Source: Eledone cirrhosa (taxonomy: Eukaryota). Taken from it: a DNA stretch of 64,000 bases. Numbering within the stretch: the first letter of the stretch is position 1; the number at the start of each line of letters is the position of its first letter. This document shows, piece after piece, positions 1,549-64,000 of the stretch. The stretch is taken from assembly GCA_964016885.1 (NCBI GenBank), contig OZ024746.1, positions 99,386,001 to 99,450,000 on the forward strand, in the 5' to 3' direction. The notes under the pieces were generated by a model. That model made no database searches, was not told where the DNA came from, and worked only from the letters and a program-made list of their open reading frames with translations. The position numbers and the translations under genes are program-made.

Positions 1549-2608
1549 TACAATGATATTAAATAAATGGAAACTATATTTATAAAACCATATTTATTCT
1601 ATTATATATATTTTAAGGGTATCAAAAGACTTTGGTACGCTTTCATAAAATAAAATACAAAGAGTGTTTTATAAATTTTGACATAGCCAAGGAAAATCAT
1701 AGCTTATCAGTTGAATATTCCCTGGGTAGTGAGAATATAGAATGGATTTTTCAAACTTATGGATGTATATGGAAATGAATATGTAAATAATTGAAAAACC
1801 GTTATTTTAAACGCTAAGGAAAGTTTAGATATATAATAATAAGAGAAAAGGAAGGAAAAAAGAAAAGGAAAGATAAAGGAAGACCACATATAACGTTAGT
1901 TTGGGGGAAATATATTCGAACATTTATCTATGTATATATGTAAGTATTTATCTTATTATATTGTAGTCGGTTAAATATATATATCTATATATATTTTAAT
2001 AGCATATGTATTTTTATTAAAATGATAATTTACAATTAATAGTTGTTTATAATATGAGTTACGAGGGATTTTGATTTTGTGTTTTAAGTAGATAAATAAA
2101 TAAATAAATAGGTAGTTCATGTTTTAGGTGGTTGTTCTAATATAAATTACGAGGGATGTTGATTTTGTATTTTATGTAAATAAATATGTAATTATAATTG
2201 AGAATGTTTTAAAATTAAATTAACGGAGTTAGGTAATAATATTTATATGATCGAAAAGGAAAGATAACTCCGATTTTATTTGTTAATTGCTATTGTGAGA
2301 TTACTTAATTATTTAGTCGAAAGAAATATGGATGTTTAGGATACGTTTTGCCAGAATCAGTTAGTGGTTATTAATCTACATTTAAAGAATAACTTTAGAG
2401 GGTGTCATTGTACTTAATTAAGAATTAAGAATTAAGGAATTAAGAATTAAAAAAAAAAATTAAAATTAAAATTAAATTTAAATTAAAATTAAAATTAAAA
2501 TTTAAAAATTAGAATTATATATGTATATATTATAATAAATTTTTAAAAGGTGGAAGTACTGCAAATGTTAGAGATATTATGATTTAGAGATATCAATATA
2601 TTAAAATG

Positions 2609-3121
2609 TTGTTATACTTTGGGAGGGTCATGTTGCCAATAAGAAACACACGCACCAGTTGCTTTCACTTCAATTTAATTTAATATATATTTATAAATTT
2701 ACAAATTTATAAATTTCTGGTTGGTTGGTTGGTTCCACAACCAGATAGTTGTTTATATATATATAGTCATAGTTCTTTCGTCACACACTCTGTGACCTCT
2801 TCAGTGACTGGGGATTTCTTTCTTCGTTTCTGTGCCTTTCCTTTCTTCTATCCTACGCCATTTGGAAAATGGCGTAGGATAGAAGAAAGGAAAGGCACAG
2901 AAACGAAGAAAGAAATCCCCAGTCACTGAAGAGGTCACAGAGTGTGTGACGAAAGAACTATGACTATATATATATAAACAACTATCTGGTTGTGGAACCA
3001 ACCAACCAACCAGAAATTTATAAATTTGTAAATTTATAAATATATATTAAATTAAATTGAAGTGAAAGCAACTGGTGCGTGTGTTTCTTATTGGCAACAT
3101 GACCCTCCCAAAGTATAACAA
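2609..3121. repeat. Palindrome with 255-bp arms and a 3-nt loop
   Basis: Symmetric about GGA at 2864-2866; mirrored ORFs in the track. Confidence 0.95.
2921..2965 (+). ncRNA. Minimal type I hammerhead (mirror copy 2765-2809 on minus)
   Basis: AGTCA-CTGAAGA-G-GTCACA GAGTG TGTGAC-GAAA-GAAC-TA^TGACT. Confidence 0.75.
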
Positions 3122-3612
3122 TATCGGTTTCAACACACGATTTCAGATAAAGAATCTTGCTAAACAAATTCAGAAACGAAATATATTAAAAATAAATTGT
3201 TAAAGCAAATAGGATTGTTATGGAGATTAATAGGAATATTATAAGTATAATTATAAGTTATATATAGTTCTAAATGTCGAATTATGGCGATGTCTACAAG
3301 AACTAAATAATTCTGTTCTGAGATTTATAGAGTTTTGACAGTTAATTATATAAAAAAAATTTAAGATTCAGTCATGGTAGTGAATAAGATATGACAAAAC
3401 TCAATATTTATATACCTTAAGAATACATAGGGTGCGTGTGAGAAAGCTATTATGTATTTTTTTAAGCTTTCTCACACGCACTCTCTGTATTATATGTAAT
3501 TTTTTCATGTCTCAATCTTAAGGTATATAAATATTGAGTTTTGTCATATCTTATTCACTACCATGACTGAATATTAACCTTCTACTAAGTCAAGGTATGT
3601 CATGCATCATCT

Positions 3613-7633: not shown

Positions 7634-7732
<99 letters not shown>

Positions 7733-7883
7733 TAAATTTATATATATATATATAATTATATATTCGTGTACAGATATCTTTTCGAAATATTTACTTCTGC
7801 GTTCACAGATTCATTCTTTTTAGTTTCAGAAGATCCCGTTAAGGATGAAAGGAGCGATTCTTTGCTTAAAATTTAATCTGTTA

Positions 7884-7997
<114 letters not shown>

Positions 7998-8068
7998 TAT
8001 ATATATATGAAAGACGTAAAATAAGAAAATTTTAAAAATTAAAAATCAACTTACTTACTAAAATTTTC

Positions 8069-8150
8069 ACTCCAACTAATTAGTTTCTGTAAGGGGATAA
8101 CTATAGTTACATAATATAACTATAGAGAATTCCTTACGTCATCAGGGAGT
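8069..8150 (-). ncRNA. Type I hammerhead with long stem II
   Basis: ACTCC-CTGATGA-C-GTAAGG...CCTTAC-A-GAAA-CTAATTAG-TT^GGAGT; covaries with 28582-28663. Confidence 0.78.
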
Positions 8151-8810
8151 CTATTCTCAGCTAAGTTCCCAGGCGATGCGCGGACACTAGGAACCCATAT
8201 AAAAATAATAATAATTCAGTGGATGGAATAAAGCTAGCGAGGACTAAATTCCGGAGCACTGAAAAAATTCACTGCCTCTGGTCAGTGGCAGATTCTAAAG
8301 AATCAATCACGTGACACTGAGGTTAATCAGTTAGGAGTGGGGTGGTATTATGACAAGAGCCTACTACTACCATGAATAAGCAGTAAATTTTGGCAAGTTT
8401 TACTTAACAAATAATTTGGAGATAAATATAGAGAATTAGTACATTTACCAACATATGTGTACAGATGTTCACCTATGCTAGCAAATATATATGTTATGTC
8501 TTAGTACCTTTGTCGTTGTATGCAGGGGGATGCAGAACAATTATATGAAAGACGTAAAATAAGAAAATTTTAAAAATTAAAAATCATATATATATATATA
8601 TATAATTATATATATATATATAATTATATATATAATTATATATATATATATATAATTATATATATAATTATATATATAATTATATATATATATATAATTA
8701 TATATATAATTATATATATATAATTATATATATATATATATATAATTATATATATAATTATATATATAATTATATATATATATATAATTATATATATAAT
8801 TATATATATA

Positions 8811-8856
<46 letters not shown>

Positions 8857-8880
8857 ATTATATATATAATTATATATATA

Positions 8881-8934
<54 letters not shown>

Positions 8935-9024
8935 TATATATAATTATATATATATAATTATGTATATATATATATATATATAATTATATATATAATTATA
9001 TATATATAATTATGTATATATATT

Positions 9025-9080
<56 letters not shown>

Positions 9081-9242
9081 TATATATAATTATATATATA
9101 TAATTATATATATAATTATATATATATAATTATATATATATATTTATATATATATATAATTATATATATATAATTATATATATAATTATATATATATAAT
9201 TATATATATATATTTATATATATATATATTTATATATATATA

Positions 9243-9280
<38 letters not shown>

Positions 9281-9481
9281 TATATATATATATAATTATA
9301 TATATATATATATATATAATTATATATATAATTATATATAATTATATATATATATATATATAATTATATATAATTATATATAATTATATATATATATATA
9401 TATAATTATAAAAACAAATAACGAAACGAAATTAAATTTCGTTTCGTTTGTAACTCACTTTTGTATGACTGACGCTTAAAC

Positions 9482-9906
9482 AATTAAGTTAAAAATGTAC
9501 ATCCACATATGTATACTGAAATACTAGTATGCATATGAATACACACACGTGTACATATGTAGATGTACCGAGTTTTTCACTGGACAATTTACTGTGAGTG
9601 TCCAGCTATTCTGTATGTAGACACACAGACAAACCGGTTTTTAGAGTCATACTGGTTTTCGAGGAAACACCTTTCCTCTATTCTCCAGAAAGCCAGACAA
9701 GGAATATTGGACTAGTTTCGATGTTGTTACATCTCATCAGCAATATTTACCTATCTTCCGGCCTTTCTAGAGAATCGTAAAAGCACATATCGTTATATGC
9801 TTTTTCTATGAAAAACTCGGTACATCTACATATGTACACGTGTGTGTATTCATATGCATACTAGTATTTCAGTATACATATGTGGATGTACATTTTTAAC
9901 TTAATT
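9482..9906. repeat. 98-bp inverted repeats enclosing a hammerhead
   Basis: 9482-9579 is the reverse complement of 9809-9906. Confidence 0.9.
9703..9747 (-). ncRNA. Canonical minimal type I hammerhead
   Basis: AATATTG-CTGATGA-GATGT AACA ACATC-GAAA-CTAG-TC^CAATATT; full consensus core and GUC triplet. Confidence 0.88.
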
Positions 9907-9931
9907 ATATAATTATATATATATATATATA

Positions 9932-9969
<38 letters not shown>

Positions 9970-10421
9970 TATATATATATATATAATTATATATAATTAT
10001 ATATATATATATATAATTATATATATATATATTTATATATATATAATTATATATATATATTTATATATATATAATTATATATAATTATATATATATATAT
10101 ATAATTATATATATTTATATATATATAATTATATATATATATATTTATATATATATAATTATATATATATATATATTTATATATATATAATTATATATTT
10201 ATATATATATAATTATATATATATATATTTATATATATATAATTATATATATATAATTATATATATATATATTTATATATATATAATTATATATATATAT
10301 TTATATATATATAATTATATATATATATTTATATATATATAATTATATATATATATTTATATATATATAATTATATATATATATTTATATATATATAATT
10401 ATATATATATATATATATAAT

Positions 10422-10456
<35 letters not shown>

Positions 10457-10718
10457 ATAATTATATATATATATATATATATAATGTAAGTATGCATGTA
10501 TACGTACATACATATATGTATACAGACGTACAGTAGCATGCACATATATATATATATATACATATGCATACAGGTACACATACATATATGCACGTATCAG
10601 TTTAGCGGCGCTTATTATAACGTCGCTTTGTTCGTTTGTAAACAAACTGAACAGCCTGAATTTATGCCATACGGTGTTAAGGCAACCACGTCACCTTTTT
10701 GTTCAACACTGACACAGG

Positions 10719-10763
10719 AACGATGTACTAGTTTCAAGCTTGTTAGCTATCATCAGCACCGTT
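10719..10763 (-). ncRNA. Minimal type I hammerhead, tandem copy
   Basis: AACGGTG-CTGATGA-T-AGCT AACA AGCT-T-GAAA-CTAG-TA^CATCGTT. Confidence 0.8.
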
Positions 10764-11178
10764 TACCCATCTGCCAGATAGTTGAACGTTCGAAAGTATA
10801 TACTTTCCTCATGAAAATTAACGGCTGAGCAACCTAATTTGCACATTGAGTGAGTTAAATCGGTCAGGCATACCGAAAACGATAAATTGAAACAAAATGA
10901 AAACGAAATTTCATTTCTTACTCTTAGTATGGCACTTACTTAAATGTAAGTATGCATGTATACGTACATACATATATGTATACAGACGTACAGTAGCATG
11001 CACATATATATATATATATACATATGCATACAGGTACACATACATATATGCACGTATCAGTTTAGCGGCGCTTATTATAACGTCGCTTTGTTCGTTTGTA
11101 AACAAACTGAACAGCCTGAATTTATGCCATACGGTGTTAAGGCAACCACGTCACCTTTTTGTTCAACACTGACACAGG

Positions 11179-11223
11179 AACGATGTACTAGTTTCAAGCT
11201 TGTTAGCTATCATCAGCACCGTT
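11179..11223 (-). ncRNA. Minimal type I hammerhead, identical copy 460 nt away
   Basis: Identical to 10719-10763. Confidence 0.8.
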
Positions 11224-11364
11224 TACCCATCTGCCAGATAGTTGAACGTTCGAAAGTATATACTTTCCTCATGAAAATTATATATATAATTATATATATA
11301 TATATATATATATATAATTATATATATATATATATATAATTATATAATTATATATATATATATT

Positions 11365-11397
<33 letters not shown>

Positions 11398-11604
11398 ATT
11401 TATATATATATATATAAATATATATATATATAAATATACAGACCGAATTAAGCCGCACAGTGTTCGGCAACCATCGTTTCCCTTTTGTTCAACACTGACT
11501 AAGGAACGATGAACTAGTTTCTAGCTTGTTCGGCAACCATCGTTGTTAATATGCATAAGGAAAGTATATACTTTCAAGCGTTCAATCTATTGACAGGAAG
11601 GTAT

Positions 11605-11647
11605 ACGGTGCTGATGACAGCTAACAAGCTAGAAACTAGTTCATCGT
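11605..11647 (+). ncRNA. Minimal type I hammerhead, same family (another at 33527-33569, plus strand)
   Basis: ACGGTG-CTGATGA-C-AGCT AACA AGCT-A-GAAA-CTAG-TT^CATCGT. Confidence 0.78.
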
Positions 11648-11905
11648 TCCTTTGTCAGTGTTGAAAAAAAGGGCAACGATGGTTACCGAACACTGTATGG
11701 CTTAATTCGGGCTGTTTGTTTACAAACAAACCGAACATTATAATAAATGTTCGGTAAAGCCATACGTACATATATATATATGTGTGCGTGTATGTATGTA
11801 TATACATACTACTGTACGTCGGTATACATATATGTATATACGTATACATACTTATATTCAAGTATCAGCCGTACTAAGAGTGAGAAATGAAATTTCATTT
11901 TTCCC

Positions 11906-12304: not shown

Positions 12305-12978
12305 AATAATTGTTTCTACTTTTGGCACAAGGCCATCAAATTACCCCAGTATATTACTGGTACTTTATTTTATCGACCCCGTAAGGATGAAAGGCAAAGT
12401 TAACCTCGGCAGGGTTTGAACTCAGAAGAATAAAGGGATGTAACTATGCTAGAAAGCATGGCGTCCGACCCTCTACCGATTCTGCCAATTGGTTTCTTAT
12501 ATAGGCACAAGGCCAGTAATTTTGGGGGCGAGGAAAGTCGATTAAATCGACTCCAGTACGTTACTGGTACTTTATTTTATCGACCCCTGGAATAACAATT
12601 GGTTCTCCTTTTGGCACAAGGCCAGCAATTATCCCAGTGCATTACTGGTATTTTATTTTATCGACCCCGTAAGGATGAAAGGCAAAGTGAACCTCGGCGG
12701 GATTTGAATTCAGAATGTAAAGGGAAGTAACTCAATGCTGCAATGCATGGCGTCCGACCCTCTACTGATACTGTTAATTGGAATAACAATTGTTTCTCCT
12801 TTTGGCACAAGGCCAGCAATAATCCCAGTGAATTACTGGTACTTTATTTTATCGACCCCATAAGGATGAAAGGCAAAGTTAACCTCGGCGGGATTTGAAC
12901 TAAGAATGGCAAGGGATGTAACTCTATGCCTCAAAGCATGACGTCCGACCCTCTACCGATACTGCCAATCCACCGCCT
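12305..12978 (-). mobile_element. Tandem cluster of about 4 copies of the dominant tRNA-derived SINE
   Basis: Repeated GGCGGTGGATTGGCAGTATCGGTAGAG...GAGTTCAAATCCCGCCGAGG...TTTCATCCTTACGGGGTCGATAAAATAAAGTACCAGT. Confidence 0.85.
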
Positions 12979-14924: not shown

Positions 14925-15703
14925 ATAGGAACCAGAAAGACCCCGACAGCTGAGCTCAAGCCGTTTCGACGGCTAATTCTGGACTAAATGAAAATTTATC
15001 CTGGTATTTAAATAGCCGATCTTCTCAAGGGGTAATTCCATATATGGTCAAAGTGATTGTCAAAAATCAGTAGTAATTCTGTGGTTGCAAATTAGTAGGG
15101 GAGATGGTGGCTAAACCTGCCAGTAGGAGAAAGAGGGGAGGGGGTGGAGTAGACCCAATCAAGCGTTTGTAGTGCCAGCTACAGCTGGGCATGAGGTCAA
15201 AGAAGATACAGGGGAGGGGGAGGGGGGGAGGGGGCGGGGGAGGAAGTCGGAACGGTAGGTAGAACAATGGGGGGGTAGAAATATAGGAAGGAAAAAATAC
15301 TGAGAGTGAAGAAATTTGCTTTTCTTCACTCTCAGTATTTTTTCCTTCCTATATTTCTACCCCCCATTGTTCTACCTACCGTTCCGACTTCCTCCCCCCC
15401 TCCCCCTCCCCCTCCCCCTCCCCTGTATCTTCTTTGACCTCATGCCCAGCTGTAGCTGGCACTACCAACGCTTGATTGGGTCTACTCCACCCCTCCCCTC
15501 TTTCTCCTACTGGCAGGTTTAGCCACCATCTCCCCTACTAATTTGCAACCACAGAATTACTACTGATTTTTGACAATCACTTTGACCATATATGGAATTA
15601 CCCCTTGAGAAGATCGGCTATTTAAATACCAGGATAAATTTTCATTTAGTCCAGAATTAGCCGTCGAAACGGCTTGAGCTCAGCTGTCGGGGTCTTACTG
15701 GTT

Positions 15704-27993: not shown

Positions 27994-28067
27994 GTTACCT
28001 GATGAGTCCATCTTGTCTTGTATCATAAATGGATGATGGAGCTGGCCATTGAAATACGTATAGTGAT
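27994..28067 (+). ncRNA. Type I hammerhead with extended stem II domain
   Basis: GTTAC-CTGATGA-G TCCATC...GATGGA...T-GAAA-TACGTA-TA^GTGAT; palindromic stem III. Confidence 0.62.
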
Positions 28068-28581
28068 TTCACGGAATTAAAATTTAAAACATATCTTCTA
28101 GTACGGCCTGTTGTTGTCATTTTAAATTATATATATATGAGGGATTATATATATATATATATATATATATTTTCTTATTTTACGTTTTTTATATAATTGT
28201 TCTATATCTCTTTGTATTGAACCACAAAGTTACTAAGACAAAACCTATATCTTTGCTAGCGTAAGTATACATCTGTATAAATATGTTGGTAGATATACTA
28301 ATTCTTTATAATTATCTCCAAATTATTTTGTTGAGCAAAAATTTGCCTAAATTACTTCTATGGTTCATAGTATTAGTTTGGCTACTGTCTTTTTAACACC
28401 CCCACTTCTCACTGATTAACCTCGATGTCACATGATTGATTTTTTTGAATTGCCACTGACCAGGAAGACAGTGAAATTTTCAATGGCGCTTTCAGTCCGC
28501 GCTTGCTTTTTTCCATCCACTGAATTATTTTTGTATAAGTTCCCTGTGTCCGCGTATCGCCAGGAATCTTAGCCGAGAATG

Positions 28582-28663
28582 ACTCCCTGATGAAGAAAGG
28601 ATTCTCCATAGTCTCCATTTGAAGACTATGTATATCCCCTTTCAGAAACTAATTAGTTGGAGT
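28582..28663 (+). ncRNA. Type I hammerhead with long stem II
   Basis: ACTCC-CTGATGA-A-GAAAGG...CCTTTC-A-GAAA-CTAATTAG-TT^GGAGT. Confidence 0.78.
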
Positions 28664-28829
28664 GAAATTTAAGTAAGTGAGTTAATTACTATAATTTTCT
28701 CATTTTACGCCTTTTATATAATTGTTTACATCTCATTGTATTGAACCACAAAGTTTCTAAGACAAAACCTATATCTTGCTAGCGTAAGTATATATCTGTA
28801 TAAATATGTTGGTAGATATACTAATTCTT

Positions 28830-28929
<100 letters not shown>

Positions 28930-32957: not shown

Positions 32958-35900
32958 GAAATTCTGCCGAGGTTAGCTTTGCCTTTTATCCTTACAGGGT
33001 CGATAAAATAAAGAACCAGTAATGCACTGGGGTAGATTTAATCAATTTTCCCTTCTCCTTCAAATTGCTGGCCTTGTGCCTAATGTAGAAACTAATATTC
33101 TTGTTATTAAACCATTATATATATATATATATTGTGAAGGCGTGTGGCTTAGTGGTTAGAGAATTGGATTCGCAATCGTGAGGTTGTGAGTTCGAATCCT
33201 GGACCGCGCGATGCGTTATGTCCTTGAGCAAGACACTCTATTTCACATTGCTCCTTCTACCTGGAGTTGCGACCGATAGATAGTATTAGCATTTGGAAAG
33301 ACCAACGGAAACATTGTTTCCTCGGTCCAATTTGACGAAAGTCGATCGACTGTCGATATATATATATATATATATTTACTCTTTTACCGATTCCAGCCAT
33401 CTATTTATCGCTTTCGGTATTCCCGGCCGACTAACTCACTCGATATGCAAATTAGGCTACTCAGCCGTTAATATGCATAAGCAAAGTATATACTTTCAAA
33501 CGTTCAATCGATTGACAGGAAGGTATACGGTGCTGATGACAGCTAATAAGCTAGAAACTAGTTCATCGTTCCTTTGTCAGTGTTGAACAAAAGGGCAACG
33601 ATGGTTGCCTAACACTGTACAGCTCAATTCGGGCTGTTTGTTTACAAATAAACCGAACATTATAATAAATGTTCGGTAAACCCATAGATATATATATATA
33701 TGCGTGTGCATGTATATACATACTACTGTACGTCTGTATACATATATGTATGCACGTATACATACTTATATATATATATATATATATAAGTTAAAACAAT
33801 GAAATAAAAAATCAAGTGAAGTATATCTGTAATGACTTGATTTTTATTTCATTGTTTTAACTTATATCATGAATGACTCTGTTTTCCTTTTAATGTTTTA
33901 TTGTTTTCTGAGATTTATCTTAACCTACAACATTTTAAACATATGGATTACATTGAGTTCATCATACAGAATAGACCCCACAACTTACAGTGGATACCTC
34001 TGTGTGTATATATATATATAGTATGAAAAACATTTTTGTATATATCGATATTTTGTGGTATGTATAGTTTTTGTCTACGGTCGGTTATCTTGGTGTTACA
34101 TTTTATAACTACGATGTTTAACTCTGGATTTAATGTGTGTTAACTTTCGATCCATTCAGTGTACTGTTATTGCCTCAAAAGAAATCGAATCATACATGTT
34201 GTACTGCACCTAAAGTTCGATTTACAAATTCGGTTGGTTCGGTAACCGGATGGTTGTTTATATATTGTCAAAGCTCTTTCATCACACATTATGTGACCTC
34301 CCCAGTGACTAGGTTTTTATTTTGTGTGTCTCTCCTTTGTTCTGTCTTACACCATTTTGTTTTTGTGTGGTGTGTGTTTAGTTTGCGCATGTGTTACAAC
34401 CGCGTGTGTGTGTGTGTGTATTTTTGATTTATTTATGTGTTTATTTACTCGTCACTAGTTGGTTGTTTGTTCTATCTGTGTGTGTCAGATTTGTTTTGTT
34501 AGTTTGGTTTTTGTGTGTGTCTGTATGTCTTCATTTTGTCCTTAATTACTAGTTGTGATGTTGCTATTCCACTCATGTTTTCTGTTTAATTTTGGTTGGT
34601 GTTTGTGTATGTTTGTCGCTTCAATATATAAGCATCTTTCCAGTTATTAAACCAACCAAACGGAAATTTATAATAAATTGAACTGAAAACCATCAGGTGC
34701 GTGTGTTTTAATTGGCAACATAACCCTCCCAAAGTATAACAATATCTGTTTCAACACACGTTTTCAGATAAGTGTCTTCCTAAAGATGATGATGGTGCTA
34801 TACAGAACTGTGGTTTCTATATTGGTTTCTCTGGCTGGATGCCCTTCCTAATGCCAACTACATTTACAGTGTGTGTTGGGTGCTTTTTGTTATAGCATTA
34901 CACACACAGACATATATATATATACATATGTATATATATTATATATATATGTATATATATTATATATATATGTATGTATATGTATATATATTATATATAT
35001 ATGTATGTAATCAATAGTGTATGTATGGACCCATTCCTACTGAGAGCATCGTAGAGGCGCCATATTGACATAAGGCATATCTAAGCCATTTTTAAACCTG
35101 GTGGAGCCCACCTCCTCTCCAATGCTGCAGATTTCTTCCAGCGAAGGCTAGAGAGTGAGATAAAGGAATTGTGAAAGAGATATAGGGGAAGAATCAAACC
35201 CAGTACTAGACTGGTACTTTTTTTATTGATCTTAAATGTATTATAGTTGACCTAGGCAGGATTTAAACTCAGAACGCATAGACTCGGAATGAATACAGCA
35301 AAGCATTCGATTCAACGTTCTAACGACTGTTACAATTCGCTGCCTTTAATCAATAATACTCTTCCTGAAAAAAGACAGCCTTTTCCAATGGTTGAAATCA
35401 GTATTTCCCAGAAAGTGCATATATTTGATTAAAATAATTTCAGTATATACCTTATATACTCGAATATAAGCCGATTTGAATAAAAGCTAAACCCACTATT
35501 TTATGTCTGTGAAATGGTCAAAATTCCAAACCTTATTTATATAGAATTTGAAGTTTGTGAAAATCGTCAAAATATTGACCTCGAATATAAGCCGGTCGCC
35601 ACCCTTCTACCGTCTATTTTTTGGTCACATATTCTTCGGCTTATATTTAAGTATAAATGGTACTTCTCTTCATTTTACTGCTTCTTGAAATTGGAAAGGC
35701 AAAAATCAACTCCCAAAAGGATTTAAACTCAGATTATAAAATGGCTGAACTAAACATTGTATATTTTCTGCTAAGTGACTTCTATTTGTCATTTATATAT
35801 TTCAGTTGTTATTGTATGGCTGTTCAAATTTCTTTAACCCTTTAGCATTTACATTACTCTATATTTACTGTTGTATGTTTGTGGTAAAGGCTTATCTCAC

Positions 35901-52320: not shown

Positions 52321-53900
52321 TTTTTTGTTATTAATGGTTTCTAACCAGAGCTCTGTGTCTAGTACAGGTAATCGATGGTTGGGGTGTTTGCTTAGGTAGT
52401 CTGTAGTAACTTTAATACTCTGGTGGATGGAGTTAGCTATTTGCTGGATGCTTTCCATGGTGTTTTTCTCTAATTCCTGACTGTTCTCTAGTGGGGGTGT
52501 TTTTACTACGATGTTTATATCATCAACGTAGCGGGAGTACATAATCAGGGTTAAGAAGTTGTTGTCTTCTAATTGTTCTTTAAGTTTTTTGTCCCACCAT
52601 ACCATGAATAGGTTAGCTATGTCACCTGCAATGCTAACGCCAATGGCTGCTCCCTCCTCTTGGGCATATATTTTTCCATTAAATTTGAATATATGTTCCT
52701 TAAGGGTTAGTTTTATACTGGCCCCCACCGCATGTGCAATCATTTTCTTTAGTTCATCATGGTTTTCGGGGGTCCGTATGGCTCTGGTCCACCCGTTCCA
52801 TCTTTCTGTGTGGGTTTTCATGGCCATTGAGGTAATGGTAGGTGGTCTGCCTCTTGCTGGCCTTGTGGGGCAGAGGTTGCTAAGGTCATACGTATCTAGA
52901 TAATCATTATTATATGTGAGTTTAAGTAGGAGTCCCAGCTCACTGGTATCAATTCCACGGAATTCAACATTGCTCTCACTGATAATTTCTACGCATTTCT
53001 CCACAGAAAAATCCACGTCAATGGATGGGTATAGGGACACTATATCCATACTACCTATTATACAGTCTGTTCGGTCCCTAGACAGGTTATTTTCGCTGAT
53101 TCTGCTGAGGAGGCCCTCCATGCTGTCACATATATCCGGGACATTTCAATGATGGGGCGTACGATCAGGGAGAGGAAGTAGAAAAGTCTGTAGTTGCTAG
53201 CAATGTTAGCTCCACAGATTGGCCGTGTTGGTGGTCCTGTGACTGGGTCACTGTACGTCTTATGGTCTTTTCCAAGCCCATACAACGTTGGCACGTCATT
53301 GTTCCAGGCCTGGAAGTTGTTGGCAGTCCGTTTATTAGGCTGCATTATGTTTGTCCACATCATCATATGAGCGTTGAGGGTTTTCTCCCTATCCTCATGC
53401 TCTTGTGGTGTTACTTCTCTTGTGTTAGGGATGTGTGGTTGCATTGCTTGGATGTAGTTTGACAGACTGCCAGACTTGTCTGTTGGAAAGCATGCAATCT
53501 CTCCATTAATCGACCGCTGCATGAGCTTACGCAAGCCATTTGCAGATTTTTCTACCAGTTGCTGGGCCTCTATTCTATTTTGCTTCTTGCTATACTGTTC
53601 TATAATACTTCTAAGTTTAGATCTAGCTATATTAAATTGTGCTTCTGTTTGTTAATCGACCTGCGACGGCAATTGCATGCGTTTGTTAAAAGCTAAAGTC
53701 GTGGCGTGGACTCGTCGTAAATCGAAGGACATATCAGAAGGGTTATAACAAGTAGAGTTCCAGGTTGTGTGGTGTGTTCTATTGCTATTGTTAGTCGTGT
53801 TGTTGTATCTATTTCTATTTCCACCAACAGCTTAATGATTGTTTCTATGTCTCTCATTCTTACTCCTGTTCCTTCCTTCTGACTCCTTGTTATTATCTAA
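52321..53900 (-). mobile_element. Penelope-like retroelement RT region (non-Naiad type), frameshifted near 53140
   Basis: ORFs 53058-53534 and 52303-53121: PTDKSG, LYGLGKDHK, RPICGA, SMDIVSLYPSID, Y.Q..GAAIG, RYVDD, LPVLDTELW. Confidence 0.85.
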
Positions 53901-62490: not shown

Positions 62491-64000
62491 GAATCAAAGA
62501 ATAATAAGGACAAACAATTTATTCAATTTGATATCAATTCATACTACACCTCTATTTCCCCTATCCTATTAAATAAGGCACTAATCATGGCCATGAACAA
62601 TAGCGACCTGACTAGAGCCCAGATTGATGTCATCCTTGCGGCTCGTAAAACCATAATCACCTTCGAGGACCAACTATGGACCCGCAAGGATACGTACAAC
62701 AACTTCGACATAACCATGGGATCTAGTGACTCGGCGCAGGTCACTGATTTGGTCGGCCTATACTTACTTAATGAAATCCATAAGGACCTCCCATACCTCA
62801 ACGGTGGTTTGTACTGCGATGATGCACTTCTACTTATAGAATATAAAAAATTCAATATAGAAAGAACTAGAAAACTATTGCACAAGACATTCAAAAACTT
62901 TAACCTTAGTATCACCATGGACAAAAACACTAACAATGTTAACTTCCTAGACGCCACACTATACCTAGACTCAAAAATATATACACCTTTCCATAAGCCT
63001 AACGAAAAACTCATTTACGTGGATACCAAGTCTAACCACCCTAGATCAATATTAAACTCTATCTCTAAGGGGGTATCCAATAGAATCTCTAATCTATCCT
63101 ATGACGCAAACATATTTAGCAAAAACTCGCAATATTATAATCAAGCATTAGCTAGATCCGGCCATAATATAGAGATTGAGTTCCTACCTAAGAAAACACA
63201 TAGCTACAACATCATTTCGCACAATATGTCCATGGGGAAACCTAGTAATATGAATAGCAACCACACGCACACTAAAGCGGAGGGTGCCACCAAAAGTAAC
63301 CATTACCACAGAATCTACCGTAGTAGCTTAGGAGGAAACAACACACCAGACACTAAAAACAAAAATAGAAGAAGAAATAATACATTTTTCAACCCTCCTT
63401 TCAACCTAAACATCTCCACCAACATACCTAGGGCTTTCTTCTCACTACTAGATAAAAACTTCCCTCTAGGACACAAGTACCATAACCTTTTAAACAAAAA
63501 CACTATTAAAATCTCATACTCTACGACGCCTAACTTAGCATACCACATAGCTAGCAGCAATAAAAGTAAAATTAATTCTTACTTCCAACAAACGAAATCA
63601 CAACAGGAGGTAAACCTTCAAAATACCTCTGTAGCAAGCAACCCTAATAACGGCAGTAATAATGGAAATAACACTAGTATAAGAAATAACACCGGGGTCG
63701 ACAACCCGAATGTCCAAAATTCTATAGCTACCACCCGGACTTCTGCACTGCATTATAACCAGCAGACTAACACCCAGGATAATTGTAACTGTAGAGCTAA
63801 TAGAACCTGCCCTTTAGATAAAAAATGCCTAACCAAGGATATCATATACTCATGCACCGTCACAACAAGCAACTCTTCAGAAACCTATGTAGGCTCCACT
63901 TCTAACTGCTTCAAAATCAGATATAATTCGCACATCCACTCGTTCAAAAAACACAGTCTAGCCAACTCCACCTCACTATCTAGCTACATACACTATCTAA
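62491..64000 (+). mobile_element. 5'-truncated Penelope-like retroelement (Naiad-type): uninterrupted RT, thumb, zinc knuckle and GIY-YIG ORF running off the window end
   Basis: Manual translation of frame 1 shows no stop for ~503 codons: FDINSYYTSIS, FDITMGSSDSAQVTDLVGLYLL, GLYCDD, NFLDATL, SNHP, FNPPF, CNCR...CPL..KCL, IIYSC...YVGST...FKIRY..H..SF. Absent from the ORF track because it has no stop in the window. Confidence 0.92.

Follow-up and report, generated by a model that had tools for sequence, protein, structure and literature searches.

Two related units between TA runs

The window analysed here, a 64,000-nt stretch of the Eledone cirrhosa genome, contains two similar sequences that are embedded in TA repeats and carry hammerhead motifs. 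This raises the question of what kind of element they derive from, which RNA served as template, and which enzyme inserted them. Copy A (8005..8586, minus strand) comprises 1.08 units of a subfamily with a 538-nt period (subfamily A), and copy B (28171..28831, plus strand) comprises 1.27 units of subfamily B, which has a period of ~524 nt. The two copies share 79% identity across 574 nt (E 1e-126). An initial annotation, made from the sequence alone, had described each as one unit plus terminal redundancy, bounded by (TA)n and lacking an ORF. This is borne out: the redundancy is 45 nt (100% identical) in copy A and 140–145 nt (93% identical) in copy B, and no stop-to-stop frame of at least 90 aa overlaps either unit. 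A natural tandem of three subfamily-A units, translated in all six frames, has stop-free stretches of at most 50 aa. TA runs, to which no strand was assigned, lie on either side of each copy: 7889..8004 at the 3′ flank of A (called to 8008), a TA-rich run at 8587..10483 at its 5′ flank (called from 8586), and 28146..28170 and 28833..28924 at the 5′ and 3′ flanks of B, respectively. Both are direct copies, A with a short and B with a long 3′ end (see below). The 5′ end of copy A is truncated 26 nt past the cleavage site of the preceding unit.

The short (S) 3′ end of copy A (8005..8022, minus strand) runs into (TA)n and is a likely first start site for reverse transcription. The site of the long (L) end (8427..8438, minus strand) is internal in this copy, was read through and holds two CT units; it is likely the second start site, TC-expanded when terminal. 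Between the two start sites, a long tail hairpin of ~20 bp (8439..8490, minus strand) was called from covariation and folds, and the tail contains a shorter hairpin at about 8512–8540 (minus strand). A promoter-like stretch (8194..8313, minus strand), recognised by conservation and by-eye reading and of putative function, includes a CACGTG box (8308–8313), CCACT and a TATA-like run (8194–8205). The CACGTG box is kept in 52 of 61 units and is the best-conserved block outside the ribozyme. A splice-donor-like GTAAGT (8053–8058, minus strand) lies 15 nt past the predicted cleavage site, is followed by a T-rich tract and recurs in 53 of 61 units; introns are common in PLE terminal repeats.

Hammerhead motif and selection on RNA structure

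Each window copy contains one type I hammerhead motif, at 8069..8150 in copy A (minus strand; core from 8145, predicted cleavage after the U at 8074) and at 28582..28663 in copy B (plus strand; core from 28587, predicted cleavage after 28658), the cleavage positions being deduced from topology. Stem I is followed by CUGAUGA, an extra base, a 6-bp stem II with internal loop and inner helix, an extra A that invariantly precedes GAAA in both copies, GAAA itself, the palindromic helix III, and the GUU triplet. The sequences that had been quoted for stem II and the inner helix are correct as written. That description had missed the extra A and the difference in the base after CUGAUGA (C in A, A in B). 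Rfam gave no hammerhead match for copy A or copy B at E ≤ 10, and none for this family among the best 150 of 251 matches for the whole window at E ≤ 1. The ribozyme call therefore rests on the core motif, the topology and covariation.

From the changes in stem II between A and B it had been concluded that the RNA structure is under selection. Across 16 pairs and 47 hammerheads (751 cells), the paired share was 97.7%. Pair 2 of stem II was U-A in 20 copies, C-G in 16 and A-U in 11, with no break. All loci together showed six fully paired variants of stem II, with all four Watson-Crick types at this position, and stem II was fully Watson-Crick in 156 of 190 distinct copies. In a tree-aware count, five same-branch compensatory changes were observed versus 0.66 expected (p = 0.001). 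A blind tree-aware test of all pairs in 61 units, however, gave no significant structural pair; its top pair (E 0.08) is not base-paired, and subfamily splits dominate. The covariation signal is carried by few deep splits. Selection on the RNA structure is thus supported by the pairing and by the compensatory changes in the hammerhead, and not by the blind test. For the ~20-bp tail hairpin, pairing was kept in ~19.5 of 24 internal-branch events, mostly via G-U pairs, which favours the ribozyme-sense strand; same-branch double changes in this hairpin were not significant (p = 0.07).

Copy A has a stable predicted fold (z −5.8); of five circular folds, one lacked stability (z −1.5). For the monomer, a fold that pairs the core with loop III is predicted to be more stable than the active form by 2.5 kcal/mol, and the 10-nt palindrome of helix III would form a duplex of −9.0 kcal/mol between two copies. 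Folding thus predicts that the ribozyme of a lone monomer is weak and that helix III is competent for dimerisation. A dimeric arrangement of this kind is described for metazoan PLE hammerheads (PMC4209133). Microhomology-type deletions in the stem II extension were seen in copies among 56 genome matches, as if the hairpin had been skipped in copying.

A large family of dispersed copies

In the host genome (3.0 Gb, 1,796 contigs) the 19-nt 3′ half of the ribozyme has 9,522 exact matches and the reversed control has none, so the motif is not due to chance. We assembled a positional sample from the first 100 matches on one contig (C1), which were thus not picked by similarity. It consists of 62 loci, overlapping windows and one segmental duplicate (L071) having been dropped. 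Addition of the 33 best loci for A, the 31 best for B and 17 loci with a deletion pattern gave 143 loci; L204/L205 and L208 are outside this count.

Cleavage-to-cleavage monomers (n = 59) were 478–571 nt long and 69–100% identical, and fell into nine clusters. In one subfamily the identity between loci is 99–100%, which indicates recent activity. The copies of the positional sample are mostly dispersed in TA microsatellites, with 1–3 tandem units per arm, and at all 62 loci nothing but unit sequence lies between the flanks. The units are short non-coding tandems with no LTR/PBS/PPT organisation. Some copies have at least two consecutive complete hammerheads, and up to 13 cleavage sites occur in one array. 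Long homogenised local arrays are not the main form, one such array having been found. The units of a 12-unit array, which underwent local evolution, are 1–11% apart and show mosaic sharing as well as a higher-order duplication (units 6/10 and 7/11). Three unlabelled sequencing runs of one sample cover both the unit and the head-to-tail joint but do not bear on its expression.

Two fixed 3′ ends and their pairing in inverted insertions

The terminal redundancy had been described as variable. Only the 5′ end varies, its positions being scattered by 5′ truncation; the 3′ end takes just two fixed positions. All intact 3′ ends lie either ~55–80 nt (short) or ~170–195 nt (long) past the predicted cleavage site, and TA runs of at least four repeats follow 81 of 96 short and 76 of 90 long end calls. 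The tail between the two ends is ~115 nt long and holds conserved hairpins. Two fixed 3′ ends combined with a variable 5′ end are the known Penelope "tail" signature, and the further marks of PLE insertion, tandem and inverted copies and a tail at one end, were found as well.

Head-to-head inversions make up over half of the positional sample, and most of the junctions have a few overlapping bases. All 38 inverted insertions of this sample have one short and one long end. Applied to the 143 loci, an automated caller found 75 short+long, one short+short and no long+long insertions (p = 1e-21), and addition of one case read by eye (L021) brings the rule to 75 of 77; the short+short exceptions are L058 and L021. 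PLE tails are given as 30–40 bp long and often present at one end (PMC8557442; PMC3846280), and have been matched to two internal sites where the RT, predicted to be a dimer, starts (PMC11167929). Inverted Neptune copies beside our loci show the same asymmetry in seven of eight cases, with tails of about 35–80 nt. At L187 (732–2233), an arm of a Neptune-a terminal repeat and a retrozyme arm are joined head to head, both by short ends and with no TA. This join is possibly a two-RNA insertion, an event that would explain the short+short exceptions.

The two arms of one locus differ from each other at 1.1 family-polymorphic sites per kb, compared to 4.5 for the nearest other locus (44 pairs); for tandem units of one locus the values are 0.9 and 2.2 (67 pairs). 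Arms and tandem units of one locus also have more private variants in common (3.3 versus 1.7 and 1.2 per kb). The simplest reading, towards which we lean, is that one template RNA molecule gave rise to both arms; a single source locus or gene conversion could also produce such likeness within a locus. Target-site duplications are unreadable inside the TA runs.

TC expansion at long ends

In subfamily A, the L site contains exactly two CT units in 35 of 36 internal cases and 4–57 units in 16 of 18 terminal cases. Exact patterns counted genome-wide gave 215 TC-expanded versus 5 unexpanded terminal-type matches, and 199 unexpanded versus 0 expanded read-through (internal) matches; these counts omit three-unit cases, and the 215 are pattern matches that were not inspected singly. 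At loci holding both site types, expansion was seen in 11 of 11 cases where the template reads TCTCT and in 0 of 27 where it does not. The short end was begun two or three times in eight matches at seven loci, one of which represents a longer duplication.

We consider it probable that the TC runs stem from slippage of the enzyme at initiation, the alternatives being slippage after insertion beside a long TA run, or repair synthesis. Telomerase, by repeat addition, makes longer repeat runs at the priming end than its template contains. A comparable lengthening of tails by slippage during initiation is described for L1 acting on Alu (PMC3415434). Compared to L1/Alu and telomerase, the template here is an internal dinucleotide of two units in a PLE-type RNA. 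Literature searches returned no PLE case of such slippage or repeat addition.

Replication slippage would have a larger part if solo PLE terminal repeats had inserted once, with tandems formed later by unequal crossover, a route proposed in a preprint (bioRxiv 2026.07.22.740005), and TC and TA runs by subsequent slippage. The higher-order duplication of the 12-unit array fits this history, as do the TA runs that already existed at three empty paralogous sites (a fourth case was uninformative). However, it is hard to reconcile with thousands of dispersed 1–3-unit copies that have fresh two-ended junctions, with partial terminal units cut at fixed sites, and with a TC expansion that affects 215 of 220 terminal-type matches but none of the internal sites in a subfamily of 96–98% identity. 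We therefore regard it as highly unlikely.

Circular or multimeric template RNA

The predicted cleavage site was run through in 94 of 115 passes, and a pile-up of 5′ ends at this site was not clear: one end was exact, about 7–8 were within 25 nt downstream and about 5 just upstream, with the 5′-end classes partly mis-assigned where an inverted arm abuts. This argues for templates that have no free end at the cleavage site. Copies that exceed one unit and extend through the cleavage site fit a circle and also an uncleaved multimer transcript.

According to the second possibility, tandem source loci would provide linear multimers as templates and the ribozyme would serve another step. At L204/L205, an intact unit lies upstream of two identically deleted units in one arm. 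A single monomer circle cannot give this mixture, nor the heterogeneity of the 12-unit array, which for its part could act as a source of multimers. It also agrees with such a template that unprocessed RNA was the main substrate of an anole PLE in vitro, and that hammerhead mutants had no effect on insertion in that system (PMC11167929). The tandem units of one locus, however, seldom differ at family-polymorphic sites, and short arrays show only singleton differences and locus-fixed variants. Moreover, each generation of linear copying would cost one promoter, whereas the subfamily with 99–100% identity contains young multi-unit copies, and circular RNAs have been shown for coral, mussel and axolotl retrozymes (PMC7229834). 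A linear multimer is thus possible, though rather unlikely; our preference, held with modest confidence, is for a putative circular RNA template.

Lack of an own reverse transcriptase in the sampled copies and the putative partner enzyme

It had been pointed out that most copies might continue into RT/endonuclease coding sequence and thus be ordinary truncated PLE ends. No sampled copy extends into an RT/endonuclease gene of its own, and an RT plus GIY-YIG ORF between terminal repeats was absent from the sampled loci. It would still be conceivable that the copies are 5′-truncated ends of an autonomous PLE that uses this unit as terminal repeat, considering that the ends, the inversions and the order of promoter, hammerhead and tail are as in PLE terminal repeats. 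In addition, PLE coding sequence (matches to Neptune protein) occurs near five distinct loci among 130 records, and L113 joins a Neptune terminal repeat with no TA run between them. However, none of the protein matches continues the unit. Upstream of each unit there is always another unit, an inverted arm or flank, and never a longer common element; head-to-tail multimers occur without any ORF, and the PLEs next to these loci come from three families whose terminal repeats are unrelated, a pattern that common TA targets would produce. This makes an autonomous PLE of that kind highly unlikely. Direct or near-direct junctions to PLE ends were found at L113, L187, L030 and L202 and involve Neptune-a, Neptune-b and a third PLE. 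Template switches were considered for these junctions. Since three families are involved, the junctions name no partner, and co-targeting together with deletion would explain them.

The family is likely a non-autonomous element that is copied in trans by a Neptune-type Penelope RT-endonuclease. Neptune-type RT/GIY-YIG elements are abundant in this genome, which has 10,597 GIY-YIG candidates. Of 50 fetched GIY-YIG loci, 38 fit the pattern and are Neptune-type by their cysteine linker, a feature of the Neptune clade (PMC8557442). By eye, these 38 loci end 150–190 nt past a hammerhead-like motif, and ahead of this motif CACGTG, CCAAT, CCACT and TATA-like motifs stand in the same order as in the ~540-nt unit. 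An autonomous partner with the same terminal repeat was not found in the 50 of 10,597 GIY-YIG loci by BLAST and profile search, nor among 56 matches to a pattern of short stem II and the same palindrome. Apart from few unrelated-looking strings, the listed matches to that pattern and 20 fetched loci turned out to be deletion derivatives of the family.

Two RT remnants with weak similarity to Neptune protein are present in the window (52357–52716, minus strand; 62716–63150, plus strand). The 3′ untranslated ends of L157, L162 and L151 are, by eye, hammerhead-like with a core of UUGA.AA instead of CUGA.GA, which resembles a U3-A8 variant (PMC4209133).

Proposed insertion mechanism and relation to known systems

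It is highly probable that the family is an animal non-LTR retrozyme with PLE-type insertion and two-site target priming. In the mechanism that we propose, a tandem copy would be transcribed from the promoter-like block inside the unit, and two hammerheads, paired via the 10-nt palindrome of helix III, would cleave as a dimer. The resulting ~540-nt monomer would likely be circularised by ligation, leaving its single ribozyme in an inactive fold. A dimeric enzyme would bind the hairpin-rich tail of ~115 nt and nick both strands of a TA run. The two cDNAs would start on the same RNA, one from the short and the other from the long site, and each active site would likely slip repeatedly on the first 2–4 template bases before elongation. 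Microhomologies would then allow the two truncated cDNAs to be joined head to head; loss of one arm would instead result in direct copies such as those in the window. The complete chain is put forward only tentatively: a dimeric PLE RT would copy one circular RNA onto both TA strands, with one start site on each side of the tail and telomerase-like repeat addition, and the parasite would thereby generate (TC)n and some of the (TA)n. If it were true, these runs would be later targets of the parasite and its helpers, and the priming reaction would be documented at thousands of places in the genome.

The element class, the hammerhead and the circle hypothesis are already known. Metazoan non-LTR retrozymes (Cervera & de la Peña 2020, PMC7229834; Li, Clavereau & Pollet, bioRxiv 10.64898/2026.07.22.740005) are likewise non-coding low-GC tandems with one type I hammerhead per unit, thousands of copies, a stable predicted fold and coexisting PLEs, and the preprint derives them from PLE terminal repeats. 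The units here measure 510–570 nt, compared to 150–450 in Cervera & de la Peña 2020 and 51–972 in the preprint. The hammerhead is of the PLE type, whereas that of the described metazoan retrozymes is canonical, and unlike those elements the family consists mostly of dispersed 1–3-unit insertions, more than half of them inverted, which bear the PLE integration signature directly. Circles were shown in metazoan retrozymes and are proposed for the present family. Fixed paired ends, inversions and TC stutter are not described in the consulted passages of the paper and the preprint, and the main text of the Octopus vulgaris repeat annotation (PMC13282606), as far as it was accessible, makes no mention of hammerheads or retrozymes.

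The pLTRs of EN+ Neptune PLEs (PMC8557442; PMC3846280; PMC4209133) also show 5′ truncation, partial tandems, head-to-head inversion, a tail at one end only, microsatellite targets and an upstream promoter-like block, and their hammerhead likewise has an extra base after A9, a long helix II and a palindromic helix III. In contrast to them, the unit described here lacks an ORF, its tail is ~115 nt instead of 30–40 nt (35–80 nt in the Neptunes of this genome), the stem II extension is branched, and an extra A precedes GAAA. The unit has no sequence similarity to the sampled Neptune families. In vitro, the tail of the anole Poseidon element PAc is defined by two internal start sites that lie on the downstream side of the hammerhead (Frangieh et al. 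2024, PMC11167929); both target strands are extended, a dimer is predicted and the target is AT-rich, as proposed here. For PAc, the strands showed no difference in start site and the start sites lacked homology to the cut DNA, whereas here the two arms nearly always differ, and both start sites end TATA-like beside TA runs, with repeat addition.

Literature searches found no description of the long structured tail (~115 nt), the near-strict short+long rule, the shared arm variants and the terminal TC expansion; older Penelope structural papers and supplements may bear on these points. PLE integration and the mobilisation of animal retrozymes are called open in the sources consulted (PMC8557442, PMC11167929, PMC7229834, bioRxiv 2026.07.22.740005). 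The family provides genomic evidence that a retrozyme is inserted via the PLE pathway itself. The qualitative statement that the tail is often at one end becomes a near-strict rule (75/77), from which one would predict that the two strands use different start sites of one RNA. In the TC runs, repeat addition by a relative of telomerase would be recorded in the sequence itself. As a small substrate with mapped start sites, the 540-nt RNA makes the PLE priming mechanism testable.

Other hammerhead motifs and repeats

A second hammerhead tandem family, probably another retrozyme, is present in the window at 10500–11280 (minus strand), 11562–11758 (plus strand) and 33484–33680 (plus strand), and in L171 at 7718–9001. 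Its period is 460 nt in the window, where two copies are 100% identical over 227 unmasked nt, and 480–510 nt in L171; the unit contains a TA-rich palindrome. A third element carries a hammerhead at 9687–9758 (minus strand), which matches Rfam HH9 (E 2.5e-6) at 38.9 bits and so falls short of the gathering score, 52. A head-to-head inverted pair at 2606–3124, with a hammerhead core in each arm (~2804, minus strand; ~2926, plus strand), looks like an inverted insertion of a PLE terminal repeat. A CUGAUGA...GAAA motif that is outside the A/B family lies 100 nt upstream of copy B (27999–28070, plus strand), and about a dozen further hammerhead-like cores adjoin TA runs in the window. In L162 (6510–7419), the TA run behind a Neptune copy holds a tandem hammerhead family (459 nt) whose stem II is long and whose tail motifs are faintly like those of the ~540-nt family.

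The window also contains a near-perfect inverted repeat of ~100 bp (15209–15424) with a purine-rich and a pyrimidine-rich arm. A SINE in the window looks cephalopod-like, and a SINE-like repeat of ~190 nt occurs in ten or more copies of 75–94% identity (at 12305, 12594, 12785, 21927, 24076, 27090, 29974, 59154 and other positions).
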